The position numbers and the translations under genes are program-made. From the NCBI GenBank assembly GCA_947494115.1, contig CANLTT010000001.1, positions 192 to 64,191 on the forward strand: DNA of 64,000 nt, given 5' to 3'. Positions 24,532 to 42,528 of the stretch are shown in pieces (the stretch's first letter is position 1; each line of letters starts with the position of its first letter). This stretch comes from Candidatus Caenarcanales bacterium. GTDB lineage: Bacteria; Cyanobacteriota; Vampirovibrionia; Caenarcaniphilales; Caenarcanaceae. The notes beneath the pieces are model-generated. The model did not search any database. It was not told the origin of the DNA and saw only the letters and a list, made by a program, of their open reading frames with translations.

Positions 24532-24872
24532 GTAAAGAGGAAGATAGGGATTCCACCAGACAGAAGATTGATTTTTTTACAAGCAGATTCAAGTGCCATT
24601 ATCTGTCTTAGTTGTTCCTCTAAATTGCTACATTCTTGAGATTCTTGCGGTTTTCGCTTGATTAAAGCAATGCTCCAAATAAATTTTAAGTTTATTTTAA
24701 CTTTCAGAACTGACTACGGTACAAAACTCTGAAATAACCAATTGAGAGAGTCTGTTTTCTAGAGAATTTCAATTTAAAAGCCCTTTGGCTCAACTGAAGT
24801 AAACCCCACCTAAAGCCGCATTTACGAGGTGGAGATGACAGATTAGCTCTAACTATTCTAACACAAAAAAAC

Positions 24873-35829: not shown

Positions 35830-37527
35830 TTATGAGCGTTTCTTAGCCATGAGTTTTTTGGTGCTCTGAAATTTTTTGGCTTTTTCGATTTCTTGTAAAC
35901 ATTCTTCCAAAATTAAACTTAAGTCTTTTCCTTCATTCCACAAGGCAATTGAAAGAATTTCTTCGGAATTATCTTGTATAAAACTTTTGCGTTCAGCCTC
36001 TGACATTTTTATTAATTTATCTTTTAGCTCTTTTGAAGCACTATTTGAAAGATTAGCTTGCCTAATTTGAGCCAAGGCTTCTTCAGACAAAGACCAAAAC
36101 AATAAAGAAACTAAGGTTTTTTCGGCATTATTAGAAGGTTTTGGCTTAGTTTTGGCCGTAAATTTTCTGTTTTGATTTGTATATTCTTTTTGGAATTGTT
36201 GCTTATTTTGCGACGGCAAGGCTTGTGAATTATTTTCAAACAAACTCAAAACCGTGTTTTTACTAAAATTTAGTGCTCGAGCGCAAGCTTCAGCCCAAAG
36301 CTCTTTTTCGATTAAATCATTTTCGCCTTTTAATAATTCAGCCAATTCTTTTAAGGCTTCAGAGCGGGCATTTGGGTCTTGTAAATTAAGGTTTGTGGTT
36401 TTGAGATTAATAATAAATTCATATACTTTCGGTGCGCTTTTGATTAATTCTTCGGCTTGGCTTGCGCTGTTTTTAAGCAAATATTCATCAATGTCTTTAT
36501 AATCACTATTTAGTTTTAAGGCTCTCAAATCTGGCTTATGACTAAAGCGGCTTTCTTGAAAAACTTTAATGGACGCTATCAAAGCCCGTTCCCCAGCATT
36601 ATCATTGTCAAAGCCCAATACAATACATCTAGCCAAATTCGAGGTATATAAAATGCTAGCTTGTTCTTTTGTCAAAGCCGTTCCAAGGCTACCAACAGCA
36701 TAATTCAAACCATTTGCATGAGCCTGAATAACATCAAAATAGCCCTCCAAAAGAAGAATTTGCTTTTGTGCTTTGGTAAAACTTTGGGCAATATTCCAGC
36801 CAAATAAATGTTGCCCTTTTGTATAAATGCTGGTTTCGGGCGAATTTAAATATTTTGGCTGAGTATTATTGTCAAGAGTTCGACCACCAAAAGCTACAAT
36901 ACGACTTTGAGCATCTTTGATGGGAATAATTAAACGATTTCGAAAACGGTCAATTAAAGCTCCAGAATAAGAATCAACTATAAACAAACCACTTTTATTT
37001 AAAATTTCTTCGGGCGGATTCAAGGCCTCTTTTGTAAAATTCAAAAGTGAATCTCGGCTATTGGCGGCAAAACCCAAAGCAAAGTTTTGTATAATTTCGG
37101 TGGATAATTTTCTTTGATTTAATAAATAATCTTTGGCTTGGCCTTTTAAATGGTCTATAAAAAAATTAGTGGCCAAACCATTCAGTTTAAAAATCCAGTT
37201 TTGTTCTTCATTGAGTTCCACCGAAATTTCTTTTTTGATAATTTCTAAGCCACATTCTTCGGCCAAATCCTGCACAACTTCAGAGAAAGCCATTTTTTTA
37301 TATTCCATCAAAAACCTAAACAAATCTCCCGAAGCACCACAAGCAAAACATTTATAAATACCTTTGCTGGGTGAAATATGCAAAGATGGCGATTTATCAG
37401 CATGAAACGGGCAAACTGCCACAAAACTGTTTCCGCTTTTTTTTATAGCTAAATATTTAGAAATTCCCGTTAAAATATCAATGCGGTTTTTAATCTCTTG
37501 CAAAGCGGCCTGAAAAGGTAATTTCAT
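35830..37527 (-). CDS. dnaG: DNA primase
   Basis: A CHC2 zinc finger (CPFHADKSPSLHISPSKGIYKCFACGASGD) and a TOPRIM domain (LLEGYFDV...GFDNDNAG). Confidence 0.9.
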   Translation of the reverse strand: MKLPFQAALQEIKNRIDILTGISKYLAIKKSGNSFVAVCPFHADKSPSLHISPSKGIYKCFACGASGDLFRFLMEYKKMAFSEVVQDLAEECGLEIIKKEISVELNEEQNWIFKLNGLATNFFIDHLKGQAKDYLLNQRKLSTEIIQNFALGFAANSRDSLLNFTKEALNPPEEILNKSGLFIVDSYSGALIDRFRNRLIIPIKDAQSRIVAFGGRTLDNNTQPKYLNSPETSIYTKGQHLFGWNIAQSFTKAQKQILLLEGYFDVIQAHANGLNYAVGSLGTALTKEQASILYTSNLARCIVLGFDNDNAGERALIASIKVFQESRFSHKPDLRALKLNSDYKDIDEYLLKNSASQAEELIKSAPKVYEFIINLKTTNLNLQDPNARSEALKELAELLKGENDLIEKELWAEACARALNFSKNTVLSLFENNSQALPSQNKQQFQKEYTNQNRKFTAKTKPKPSNNAEKTLVSLLFWSLSEEALAQIRQANLSNSASKELKDKLIKMSEAERKSFIQDNSEEILSIALWNEGKDLSLILEECLQEIEKAKKFQSTKKLMAKKRS

Positions 37528-37652
37528 ATAAATAAGTTTTTATAAAATACCTTATGAGTATACTGTGTTTTGTTTTTGACCCGAGATTACAAATTTTGCT
37601 ATTTCAAATCAAGTCGGCTTCCACTTGTTAAAAACCTTATCTCTAGAGTTTA

Positions 37653-37796
37653 ATGAATTTTTTTAGCCTACACACTCTTTGGGTTTTTATTAGTGGAGAT
37701 CTGAAAGCATTATTTGCTAAAGAATTTTACTTTAAAAGAGGATTTTCAGACATGAACCAAGAACCTTTTATTTGTAATTCTTTGCTCAATTAAATC
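37653..37796 (+). pseudogene. Internally deleted remnant of a second copy of the caspase-like peptidase gene (paralogue of 39117..39998)
   Basis: Nucleotide identity to 39098-39165 (including the last codons of the upstream small ORF and MNFFSL.TLW.FISGD) and to 39938-39965 (QEPFICNS). The roughly 800-bp middle is absent. Confidence 0.7.
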
Positions 37797-37917
37797 ACTA
37801 GATGAAGTTTTTGAAAATTAATTAAATTGCTTTCTAAAAATTAAAACAAACTTAAAATTTATTTTGTGCCTTGCTTTAACTGTCCAGAAGTACCAATAAT
37901 TATCTTTACAGTTTTAT

Positions 37918-38499
37918 TTGAAGGAATTTAATTTTATGTCTGTTTTAGGAGTAATAGCTAGTTTGCTTCCACTTACAGGAACCAGCCTGCAATCTCCAGC
38001 TACTCATTTCCCTTTACCTTTAGAAAAATCTATTCCCGCTTCAGAAAGACTTAACAATAAGCAAGCGCAAAGTGGTGGTGGAGAGTTGACAACCTTCGAG
38101 CAACTTATGAACTATATCAAGGTGCAGCCAAGTCCTTATTTTTCTTCTGTAAATGTAGAATATCAAGGTGTTCTTTTTGCATGTATAGCTCAACCAGCTT
38201 CTCAAGCTGATCTAGAAAACTCACCATTTGTAAATATTAGCTGTACAGGACTTAACGGAAAGATCTTAAGGTTTAATAGAAACGGTTCTAAGCAAGAACT
38301 ATTTATAATAACTCCTCTTAATCCCACTTGCTATGGCCAAATCATAGCTAGAGAATATGGTGAAGAGTATTGTTTGCAACCTAGCAATTCTAGAGTTCTT
38401 CCAGCAAACAACTTGCTAAATTGGAATCAAAGATCTTTCTTGCTAAATTGGAATCAAAGATCTTTGGTGAACTCTTCTAATTTTCGCCAGAAGAGTTAA
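37918..38499 (+). CDS. Hypothetical protein with a signal-like N-terminus and a C-terminal tandem 9-aa repeat (LLNWNQRSF/L)
   Basis: An ORF unique to the first copy of the duplicated locus, with no recognisable family. Confidence 0.4.
   Translation: MKEFNFMSVLGVIASLLPLTGTSLQSPATHFPLPLEKSIPASERLNNKQAQSGGGELTTFEQLMNYIKVQPSPYFSSVNVEYQGVLFACIAQPASQADLENSPFVNISCTGLNGKILRFNRNGSKQELFIITPLNPTCYGQIIAREYGEEYCLQPSNSRVLPANNLLNWNQRSFLLNWNQRSLVNSSNFRQKS
38413..38466. repeat. 27-bp perfect tandem repeat x2 (ttgctaaattggaatcaaagatctttc/g) inside the 37918..38499 ORF
   Basis: Direct reading of the sequence. Confidence 0.9.
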
Positions 38500-38538
38500 T
38501 TACAAATTCTGACATAAAACAACCATTTAACCAATACG

Positions 38539-38705
38539 CTGTTCAATTAACCACTTTCAAGCAATTCGGCTTTTTGTTGAAGCAAATTTAAACGCCTTTT
38601 TAAGCCTTCTGGCAGATTTTCTAGTTTTGGGTTTTGCGCAATAACCTTATCTGCTGAGGTTTTAGCTTTTTCAAGAATATCACCATGCAAGGCTAAGCTT
38701 GCTAA
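38539..38705. repeat. Non-coding duplicate of the recG 3' end plus the recG-caspase gene intergenic junction (paralogous to 39999..40165)
   Basis: About 165 bp of near-identical sequence (ctgttca.ttaaccactttcaagcaattcggctttttgttgaagcaaatttaaacgcctttttaagccttctggcagattttctagttttgggttttgcgcaataa...) is present at both places. Confidence 0.85.
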
Positions 38706-38775
38706 TTTTGAAGAGTTTGAGTTAATTTTAGTTAAATCGCTAAATTTCCAAAATTAAGAATGTAATATATTTATA

Positions 38776-39117
38776 ATGGGAATATATACTTTGGTTGATA
38801 AACAAAAGAAAATGGGTAAAAGTAAATATATTTCAAGGCACTTGTTGCCTAGCTTGCCAAATCCTGCTATTACCCTGATCAATAGAGGACTAAGCTCTCT
38901 GTGGGAAATTGAACCTATAGCACTTTCTGATGATTCAATAGCTAATTATCTTTTTCGGCTCAATAAAACCGAGTTTTGGTATTTAAATTCTAATGGTTTG
39001 CCGCTTCCAATTAAGCCAGACAAAATAGGCGAACTGAAAATAATTGATTGTATAGATTTTGAAGACTATGAAGATACAACTGATAAAATTGTCAGAAATT
39101 TATTCTCTAAAGTTTAA
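38776..39117 (+). CDS. Hypothetical small protein, translationally coupled (TAATG overlap) to the caspase-like peptidase gene
   Basis: A 113-aa ORF whose stop overlaps the downstream start. No recognisable motifs. Confidence 0.4.
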   Translation: MGIYTLVDKQKKMGKSKYISRHLLPSLPNPAITLINRGLSSLWEIEPIALSDDSIANYLFRLNKTEFWYLNSNGLPLPIKPDKIGELKIIDCIDFEDYEDTTDKIVRNLFSKV

Positions 39118-39998
39118 TGAATTTTTTTAGCTTAAATACTCTTTGGATTTTTATTAGTGGAGATGATGAAGATAGATTTATTGATGACATTCGCTTTGGG
39201 TTGGCTGTTCTAAAGAGTAAAGGCATTGACGAAGAAAATATAAAAATCTTCATTGATGGTGAGCAAAACCTTATTCATGCTCGCTTTGGTAACGAATTAG
39301 GAAATAATCAGGTTTTATGTCTATCTGCTTTAGAAGAAGAGTTAAAAACAAAAAGCTACAAAAATGTCGTTCTTTTTACAACTGGACATGGTAGCGAGTT
39401 TGGATTAGCGGGGAATAATCCGATTTCTCCTTATAAACTTTTGAAAATAATTAGGTTAATTCCTGAAATTGAAAGAGGATTATTTGTGATTGGACAATGT
39501 TATGCGGGAATTTTCAATCATATTGACGCAAAACCTACCAAAGGTTCTTCTGAAGCAGAGATTTGTATTTTAGGCAGTGCTGGCTTTTCTCCGAGTTTAA
39601 GTTCTTCAGGGTCTCTAGAAGAGAAACTACCAAAAAAACTAATTGATTTATATGGCTTGAAAAAATGGACGGCTAATGTTTTTCTTTTTTATTTTTTTCT
39701 TTGGCTTTATGAACCTCAAGATATTGACGGAAACGGTGAATTAACAGTAATGGATGCTTATAAATTTGTGGCAATAAAAACTAGCGAACATATAAACAAT
39801 GAGAAAAAAATGTGGACTTTTAGTTCTGTTTTTAAAATTCAACAATTTAAAGACAGAGTTTCTGAAATGCTTGATGAAAACGAAAAGATTTTATACTTAC
39901 AAGAAATAGATTCAATACTTGAACTTTTACATATTTATCAAGAACCTTTTATTTGCAATTCACGGTTTGCGCAAGAATTAAAATTTGAAATTAGCTAA
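39117..39998 (+). CDS. Caspase-like clan CD cysteine peptidase (C14/C13-like His-Cys dyad)
   Basis: Hydrophobic beta-strand blocks precede each residue of a catalytic dyad: NVVLFTTGHGSEFG (His-Gly) and, about 35 aa later, GLFVIGQCYAGIF (Gln-Cys-x-x-Gly, compare caspase QACRG). Total length is 293 aa. Confidence 0.55.
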   Translation: MNFFSLNTLWIFISGDDEDRFIDDIRFGLAVLKSKGIDEENIKIFIDGEQNLIHARFGNELGNNQVLCLSALEEELKTKSYKNVVLFTTGHGSEFGLAGNNPISPYKLLKIIRLIPEIERGLFVIGQCYAGIFNHIDAKPTKGSSEAEICILGSAGFSPSLSSSGSLEEKLPKKLIDLYGLKKWTANVFLFYFFLWLYEPQDIDGNGELTVMDAYKFVAIKTSEHINNEKKMWTFSSVFKIQQFKDRVSEMLDENEKILYLQEIDSILELLHIYQEPFICNSRFAQELKFEIS

Positions 39999-40008
39999 AG
40001 CCTGTTCA

Positions 40009-42408
40009 CTAACCACTTTCAAGCAATTCGGCTTTTTGTTGAAGCAAATTTAAACGCCTTTTTAAGCCTTCTGGCAGATTTTCTAGTTTTGGGTTTTGCG
40101 CAATAAACTTATCTGCGGAGGTTTTAGCTTTTTCGAGAATATCACCATGCAAGGCCAAACTTTCTAAACCAAAGTCAGAGAGGCCACTTTGTCGGGTACC
40201 CAAAAACTCACCCGGACCTCTGATTTTAAGGTCTTCTTGGGCAATTATAAAACCATTTTGCGTTTGCTCCATTATATGCAGTCTTTGCTCGGTTGTAGTT
40301 GAACGAGAGTCTGCAAAAAGAAAACAATAAGATTGCCACACACTTCGTCCAACACGGCCTCGCAATTGATGTAGCTGAGACAAACCAAAGCGTTCAGCAT
40401 TTTCGATAATCATAATCGTGGCATTTGGCACATCAACACCAACTTCAATTACGGTTGTTCCAACCAAAACCTGAATTTCATTTTTGCGAAAAGCATTCAT
40501 TACTTCATCTTTATCTTCGGTAGAAAGCTTGCCATGCACAATTCCAACTTTATAATTTTCATAAATTTTTTCGAGTTTAATGGCTTCTTCGGTAACTGCT
40601 TTAGCGGATAGGCTCTCTGATTCCTCGATTAGCGGATAAACAATATAGGCTTGCCGCCCTTCGGCTAATTGTTTTTTGACAAATTCATGAGCGGCTTTGC
40701 GGTCTCGGCCTTGCACTAAGCGAGTTTGTATTGGTTTGCGGCCAGCGGGCAATTCGTCAATTTCAGAAAGATCGAGATTGCCATATAAAGCCAAAGCCAA
40801 AGTGCGTGGAATTGGAGTAGCTGTCATAAAGAGGCAATCGACCATTTTACCTTTGCGTTTTAAAAACTCTCTTTGCTTGACTCCAAAACGGTGCTGTTCA
40901 TCAATAACCGCTAAACCTAAATTTGCAAATTCAACTCCTTCTTGAATTAAAGCGTGAGTGCCGACTACAAGAGGAATTTGACCATTAGCTAAACCTGTTG
41001 AAACTTCTCGTCTTTCGGCTGTTTTTTGTGAACCAATCAAAAGAGCCGTCCGCACGCCAAGTGGAGAGAGCCATTCTTGAAATTTACGAAAATGTTGTTC
41101 GGCTAAAATTTCGGTTGGAGCCATTAAAGCCGATTGTTCTCCACGTTCAAGTGCCATTAACATTGTCAAAAGCGCCACAATGGTTTTTCCGCTACCGACA
41201 TCACCTTGCAAAAGCCTGTTCATGGCGATTGGTTGCCTTAAATCGATTTGAATTTCGCTTAAAACTTTTGTTTGAGCCTTGGTGAGCGCAAAAGGCAATA
41301 ATTGGCTAAATTTGGCAAAAATTCCATTTTCCGATAATAATAAAAGCCTATTTTGGGTGCTGAGCTTGGCGGCTGTGTGAGCGGCTCTTTTGATTGAAAG
41401 CGGCAATTGCATCAAAAAAAACTCTTCAAAAATAATGCGTTCTTGGGCTTTTTCTAGTTTGCTTTCAGAATCAGGGAAATGCATTTGAAAAGCGGCCTCT
41501 TTAAAGCTCATTAAATCAAATTCTGGCGGCAAGGTTTCTTCAATTTGGTCATTAAATTTGTCAAAAGCATTATAAATAATTTTGCGCAAGCGGCTCTGAT
41601 TAAGGCCTTCGGTTAAACCATAAATTGGCACAAAACGCCCAACTTCCAAAGATTCAGAACCTTGTTTTTCTTCATCTAAAATCTCAACCGAAAAATTGGT
41701 AAGTTGATAACGACTTGTTTTATCAAATTGAGCGCAACCAGAGACCATTACCAAAGAATTAATCGCAAATTGTTTTTTATAATTTTCCAACAAAAACTTA
41801 TTAGAACGACCAGCCACAAATTTATTCAGCGTAACTGTGCCCGTGGAGTCGGTGATCTGAATATTTAAAATGCCTAAATTGGGATTACGTGGACTTTGAA
41901 AAGCATTAACCTTGCTAACCACGCCTATAATGGTGGCTTCGAGACCAACTTTTAAATCACGAATATAAACTCTTTCGCTAAAATTTAGGTGTTTTCGAGG
42001 CCAATAACAAAGCAAATCTTGTACTGTAAAAATGCCAAGTTTATTTAAAGTTTTGGCCAAAATGTTTCCCACAGCGGGTAGCCATTTTATATCGGTTTCC
42101 CAGAGCGCACTTTTAGTAAATGTTTCTTTTTTTTCGGTTTTCTCAAGGTCTTTGGCCAAATCGTGCAAATTGGTTTTAGTGTTTCTTATAAGTTGCATTC
42201 GGCTTGGCAAGTCTAAGCTGGCATAAATTTTATATTTTTTACTTAATTCTTGCGCCAGCGTAATTTGATGATTTGCAAATAAAATATCAAAGGTTTTATG
42301 CATAAATTGCGAAAAAGTTTCCTTTTGGCCGACTAAATCGCTATAAGATGCCTTTTCCTCAAATTCAATTGCTTTTTTTATTTTATTTATATAAACCGCA
42401 AAGCTCAT
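40009..42408 (-). CDS. recG: ATP-dependent DNA helicase RecG
   Basis: A wedge/OB domain and a superfamily-2 helicase with Walker A (GDVGSGKT), DEQHRFGV and a C-terminal TRG motif region. Confidence 0.9.
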   Translation of the reverse strand: MSFAVYINKIKKAIEFEEKASYSDLVGQKETFSQFMHKTFDILFANHQITLAQELSKKYKIYASLDLPSRMQLIRNTKTNLHDLAKDLEKTEKKETFTKSALWETDIKWLPAVGNILAKTLNKLGIFTVQDLLCYWPRKHLNFSERVYIRDLKVGLEATIIGVVSKVNAFQSPRNPNLGILNIQITDSTGTVTLNKFVAGRSNKFLLENYKKQFAINSLVMVSGCAQFDKTSRYQLTNFSVEILDEEKQGSESLEVGRFVPIYGLTEGLNQSRLRKIIYNAFDKFNDQIEETLPPEFDLMSFKEAAFQMHFPDSESKLEKAQERIIFEEFFLMQLPLSIKRAAHTAAKLSTQNRLLLLSENGIFAKFSQLLPFALTKAQTKVLSEIQIDLRQPIAMNRLLQGDVGSGKTIVALLTMLMALERGEQSALMAPTEILAEQHFRKFQEWLSPLGVRTALLIGSQKTAERREVSTGLANGQIPLVVGTHALIQEGVEFANLGLAVIDEQHRFGVKQREFLKRKGKMVDCLFMTATPIPRTLALALYGNLDLSEIDELPAGRKPIQTRLVQGRDRKAAHEFVKKQLAEGRQAYIVYPLIEESESLSAKAVTEEAIKLEKIYENYKVGIVHGKLSTEDKDEVMNAFRKNEIQVLVGTTVIEVGVDVPNATIMIIENAERFGLSQLHQLRGRVGRSVWQSYCFLFADSRSTTTEQRLHIMEQTQNGFIIAQEDLKIRGPGEFLGTRQSGLSDFGLESLALHGDILEKAKTSADKFIAQNPKLENLPEGLKRRLNLLQQKAELLESG

Positions 42409-42528
42409 CAGTTAATTAAAGTCAATAAATATATTTTAAGTTTAAACCACACAAAAAAAGATTAAGACAATAATTTCTTAAGAAAAGCCGACTTCGGTTA
42501 AAATTTAAATACTTGTAATAGCCCTAAA

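Follow-up and report, generated by a model that had tools for sequence, protein, structure and literature searches.

In the analyzed window (the whole 64,000-nt stretch of DNA), the interval between dnaG and recG contains a mobile two-gene cassette in two generations, an intact gene pair and the wreck of an older copy. The pair consists of ORF113, which encodes a small partner protein, and a peptidase gene, hence termed X. We assign a probability of about 0.45 to the joint reading that the intact cassette is an imported second copy and that X is a Ca2+-gated peptidase maturing its partner as a conflict module.

Intact and decayed copies of the cassette

The locus contains the following features (window positions).

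35,830–37,527, minus strand: dnaG (primase), a 565-aa ORF, the left housekeeping flank
37,637–37,700, plus strand: relic A′, spanning ~17 nt from the 3′ end of the partner gene and the first 16 X codons (BLASTN)
37,653–37,793, plus strand: ORF46, a 46-codon in-frame relic of X (ORF list, tblastn, family HMM)
37,758–37,780, plus strand: relic B′, part of the X C-terminal coding region (BLASTN)
37,832–37,879, plus strand: 48-nt motif upstream of ORF193, with a second copy at 24,662–24,709 (minus strand)
37,918–38,499, plus strand: ORF193, flanked by the relics of X and of the recG tail; the ATG at 37,936 gives 187 aa
38,412–38,465, plus strand: two copies of a 27-nt tandem repeat within the 3′ end of ORF193; the repeat varies in length across the population
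38,539–38,705, minus strand: C′, the recG 3′ end in a second, displaced copy that covers 7 nt of flank beyond the stop codon, the stop codon itself and the last 52 codons, with no gene attached
38,547–38,705, minus strand: this recG-tail relic as delimited in the ORF layout
38,706–38,775, plus strand: non-coding cassette leader, which moves along with the two genes (nucleotide homology with the L034/L035 cassette begins at 38,699)
38,776–39,117, plus strand: ORF113, the partner gene (ORF list)
39,117–39,998, plus strand: X, the peptidase gene (293 aa), overlapping ORF113 as TAATG
40,002–40,167, minus strand: C, the recG 3′ end still joined to recG, the right-hand direct repeat bracketing the cassette
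40,009–42,408, minus strand: recG, a 799-aa ORF, the right housekeeping flank

Pfam domains confirm the assignment of both flanks made in the original prediction: Zn_ribbon_DnaG, DNAG_N and Toprim were found on the identical dnaG gene of contig L037, and RecG_wedge, DEAD, Helicase_C and RecG_dom3_C on recG of contig L001. The ORF layout likewise agrees with the proposed ORF113/X overlap and the 10-nt gap between the X and recG stop codons. The cassette is ~1.3 kb long and comprises the leader, the gene for a ~100-aa partner and the translationally overlapped gene for the 293-aa peptidase; its intact copy is bracketed exactly by the two copies of the recG tail.

Comparison of positions 37,500–38,760 with 38,761–40,250 by BLASTN yielded three same-strand pairs in conserved order: A′ with 39,100–39,164 (90.8% identity over 65 nt, E 2e-20), B′ with 39,939–39,961 (95.7% over 23 nt, E 6e-6) and C′ with 40,002–40,167 (95.2% over 167 nt, E 1e-73). 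The near-identical stretches noticed originally were recovered, their coordinates being off by no more than 2–3 nt. B′ is as similar to the L034 cassette as to the resident one. A repeat search recovered these pairs too, their starts lying 1462 and 1464 nt apart. The partner-gene part of A′ carries a 1-nt indel relative to the intact cassette, and ORF46 retains X residues 1–16 and the C-terminal motif QEPFICNS (~10 C-terminal codons), with ~717 nt of the X interior gone. X residues 1–46 and 257–282 matched the ORF46 frame in tblastn, and the X family HMM matched it solely at profile positions 1–22 and 289–300. The predicted tandem, in-register arrangement with a decayed second copy is borne out by these alignments, the repeat spacings and the ORF46 relic.

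ORF193 is a true orphan with a weak coding signal, and its status as a gene is doubtful. Its sole match among 5.8 billion clusters was itself, family and profile searches returned no family, its codon-usage score is the lowest among window ORFs of at least 120 aa, and four other contigs carry a frameshift that affects its C-terminus. The two copies of the 48-nt motif are 87.5% identical over 48 nt (E 2e-10); a weaker copy lies just upstream of the recG start (42,409–42,443, minus strand), and the 17-nt core occurs three times with 0–1 mismatches.

Nine metagenome contigs (L001, L002, L003, L037–L042) match the window collinearly and jointly span every junction; they come from several samples, and their record names follow three assembler styles. 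L038, L039 and L040 are continuous from dnaG or its upstream spacer via A′, ORF193, C′ and ORF113 into X, and L001 is continuous from ORF193 via C′, the cassette, C and recG to hemA; L002 and L003 are 100% identical across their junctions. The window evidently derives from a metagenome-assembled genome, the repeats are short and 95% identical, and Logan contigs break inside them, all of which would favor an artefact joining two strain alleles of the dnaG–recG interval. However, L001, L002, L003 and L038–L040 cross the junctions, and since the arrangement recurs in eight independent contigs, it is no assembly artefact and this explanation is effectively refuted. All nine contigs of this population have one structure save a 23-nt repeat indel (an extra unit at 38,420 in L001, L038, L039 and L040), and in the only retrievable recG relatives (~50% identity) recG is not adjacent to dnaG and the cassette is absent. 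The proposed label of a hypervariable hotspot is unproven.

Origin of the tandem structure

The intact cassette was most likely imported from a closely related lineage (~5–9% diverged) by homology-facilitated illegitimate recombination. One end of the import would have been anchored by homology within recG and the other joined via a 7-nt microhomology (TTKCTAA), 52 codons before the recG stop, and the resident recG tail together with the resident decayed cassette would thereby have been stranded upstream. At the junction of C′ and the cassette, TTGCTAA is common to the last 7 nt of C′ and the left end of the L034 cassette, whereas recG has TTTCTAA. The codons of C′ and C differ by four synonymous changes and a stop-codon switch versus one or two non-synonymous changes. 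As the differences are mostly synonymous, both tails plausibly diverged inside working recG genes (binomial p ~0.02–0.04 against the 75% non-synonymous changes expected for a pseudogene, estimated from only 6–7 substitutions).

It is also conceivable, and we hold it as a tentative alternative, that a single ancestral cassette stood beside recG, that a 1462-nt unit of this cassette and the recG tail was duplicated in tandem in situ by a microhomology-mediated event and that the upstream copy then decayed, losing the partner gene and ~717 nt of X in frame and gaining the ORF193 segment. The copies stand in exact register with a period of 1462–1464 nt, the 7-nt microhomology is a classic duplication signature, and A′ shares 91% identity with the resident intact cassette, far above its 73–74% with cassettes of other genera. 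The mostly synonymous divergence of the displaced recG tail, however, is unexpected for a pseudogene from birth. Perfect 1.46-kb tandem repeats are unstable, yet they would have to persist through 5–9% divergence, and the register would need an unexplained coincidence of ~717 nt lost and ~718 nt gained.

Two further observations concern the junctions. The microhomology would be expected equally from in situ tandem duplication, which weighs against import. The A′-to-C′ spacing equals that of the corresponding intact segments within 1–2 nt despite the unrelated interior, and neither import nor in situ duplication explains this.

Direct repeats of a target gene's 3′ end that bracket the cassette and leave recG intact resemble islands at the 3′ ends of tRNA or protein genes. 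In contrast to such islands, the cassette has no integrase or att-type core, and its repeat is 167 nt long and 5% diverged. The presence of only a 7-nt microhomology at the junction points to illegitimate recombination.

The X peptidase and its partner protein

X is a clan CD cysteine peptidase of the legumain/C13-like type with an intact dyad of His91 and Cys128 (assigned by alignment). Structure and profile searches both uphold the caspase-like clan CD fold proposed originally and place X more precisely. Foldseek retrieved GPI8 and legumains (E 6e-6 and weaker), and peptide asparaginyl ligases and the GPI transamidase subunit are among the closest folds. An 85-sequence profile of the X family matched plant AEPs at E 3e-5, in an alignment that covers the RH..D motif and pairs GHG with NHGG at the catalytic His and LGQCYAG with LEACESG at the catalytic Cys. 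H91, G92, C128, G131, D202, D204 and D213 are invariant in these 85 sequences, the last three within an EF-hand-like loop (D202–D213). X itself had no Pfam match, and 4 of 12 relatives touched Peptidase_C13 weakly, below threshold. X genes are occasionally interrupted (L015, L022, L023).

The likeness to legumains, AEPs, ligases and GPI8 (MEROPS C13, clan CD) lies in the N-terminal T.W...RH..D motif, the H-G His and the C-x-x-G Cys of the X profile. In contrast to this family, to which it is ~13–16% identical, X is cytosolic, lacks any visible signal peptide or LSAM prodomain, embeds an EF-hand-like loop, has a long helical hairpin at its C-terminus, and always comes with a small gene directly upstream. 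Arg20 aligns with the legumain RH motif, but its His is replaced by Phe in this X, and the legumain S1 Glu two residues before Cys (E-A-C) is replaced by Gly (G-Q-C); therefore, Asn specificity cannot be assumed. Metacaspases (C14B) are Ca2+-dependent clan CD peptidases; unlike in them, the S1-position Arg of X lines up with the one in legumain, an enzyme that cuts after Asn, and the putative calcium site would be a canonical EF-hand loop elsewhere in the fold. Caspases also have an S1 Arg, and metacaspases cleave after basic residues.

The conserved core of ORF113 begins at Met13 (38,812). Its beta-rich core is followed by a flexible C-terminal tail (F95-E96-D97 ... N108-LFSKV), which the structure model renders with low confidence; the model had no PDB counterpart. 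An Asn lies 7–11 residues past the conserved F-x-D in 52 of 66 distinct partners (counted from the listed tails), occurs in five or six separate clades, and is followed by an unconserved stretch of 1–13 residues. Given the conserved Asn and the variable residues after it, the partner tail is a candidate site for cutting by an Asn-directed peptidase. Asn is absent from one clade (the Muribaculaceae/gut Melainabacteria type, with tails ending in CxxCK) and from the L017 and L036 partners, and the corresponding X proteins keep the dyad. The conserved Asp of F-x-D is an alternative candidate for P1.

Distribution and possible role of the gene pair

Of 25 genomes with X homologs, drawn from about nine phyla, 21 have a homologous partner gene of ~95 aa directly upstream of X; two of the four loci without a detected partner are cut by contig ends. 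The 25 carriers belong to Proteobacteria, Spirochaetes, Bacteroidota, Clostridia, Cyanobacteria, Melainabacteria, Bdellovibrionota and Myxococcota. The original view that neither ORF113 nor ORF193 has a family thus holds for ORF193, while ORF113 belongs to a conserved partner family. The pair as a whole has no annotated family in Pfam, PADLOC and other family searches, as predicted. The two genes overlap by 1–13 nt in 11 of 23 loci and are at most 56 nt apart in the remaining ones. The two proteins diverge together, as their pairwise identities are strongly correlated (Mantel r 0.92; 0 of 2000 permutations as high). The cassette is a self-contained unit, inherited and transferred as a pair.

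The L034/L035 cassette is 71% identical to the resident one and aligns with it over 38,699–39,989, a span that opens at the end of C′ and closes at the X stop. Related genomes carry the cassette at different, unrelated loci: between PGI and DUF2237 (L034), before Endonuclease_NS (L029) and after Peptidase_A24 (L036). No flanking repeats were found at the other cassette loci, and plasmid and phage searches returned no copies of the pair. Mobile or defense neighbors in a few genomes are suggestive, namely an integrase and HsdR in Nodosilinea, a TOTE conflict-system primase-helicase in Pseudomonas and a MuF-C polyvalent protein in Treponema. The gasdermin/CHAT-type defense role suggested originally found no support, as PADLOC matched neither the pair nor ten neighbors and no sensor domain was seen in the best-scoring 150 of 233 relatives (173–354 aa, mostly 280–350); the label of a defense system is likewise unproven.

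Small pro-proteins that are encoded beside proteases and become active once a C-terminal tail is cut off are documented, for example Pepco and EACC1 (PMC12642450). The ORF113–X pair resembles Pepco/Trypco, EACC1, CATASP and bacterial gasdermin systems (PMC12642450) in having a small non-enzymatic gene immediately upstream of a cysteine or caspase-fold protease, a conserved site in the C-terminal tail, as in the known activation logic of Pepco, and a mobile, patchy distribution. In contrast to these systems, the partner matches none of their families, and X stands alone with no STAND/Avs, SAVED or other sensor domain (best 150 relatives). In our preferred reading, X would be a cytosolic, Ca2+-gated, Asn/Asp-directed endopeptidase with the partner encoded just upstream as its dedicated substrate. 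X would cut the disordered tail after the conserved Asn (N108 here), and tail removal would mature or activate the beta-rich core.

A toxin–antitoxin-like pair, with X as a harmful protease acting on cellular proteins and the partner as its cognate inhibitor holding the tail as a pseudo-substrate in the active site, seems unlikely. A small first gene with 1–13-nt overlaps resembles type II toxin–antitoxin operons, and the patchy, mobile distribution, the interrupted X genes and an exposed tail with a conserved Asn would suit it; legumain is inhibited by Asn-bearing cystatin loops. On the other hand, family and profile searches found no known family for the partner, including any DNA-binding domain or antitoxin family, there are no plasmid copies among the searches, and the residues after Asn vary in sequence and length, as fits a discarded propeptide better than a tight-binding loop. 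Less probable still is a maturation pair of ordinary physiology, in which X processes or transfers the partner C-terminus like plant asparaginyl ligases or GPI8, possibly attaching the small protein to another molecule or cyclizing it. Asparaginyl ligases and GPI8 recognize an Asn followed by a short disposable tail, the pattern of the partner; their folds are among the closest to X, and the missing defense-database matches agree with such a role. Yet a sporadic distribution with positions shifting even among related genera is atypical of a housekeeping pathway, no conserved acceptor or accessory genes were found near the pair at the carrier loci, and the homolog is too distant for ligase-determining features to be read.

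The ORF113–X pair is an unannotated, horizontally mobile module, sporadic across many bacterial phyla. Under the preferred reading of X as a peptidase maturing its partner, it may function as a small accessory conflict module made of a protease and its pro-protein, comparable to abortive-infection or addiction systems.

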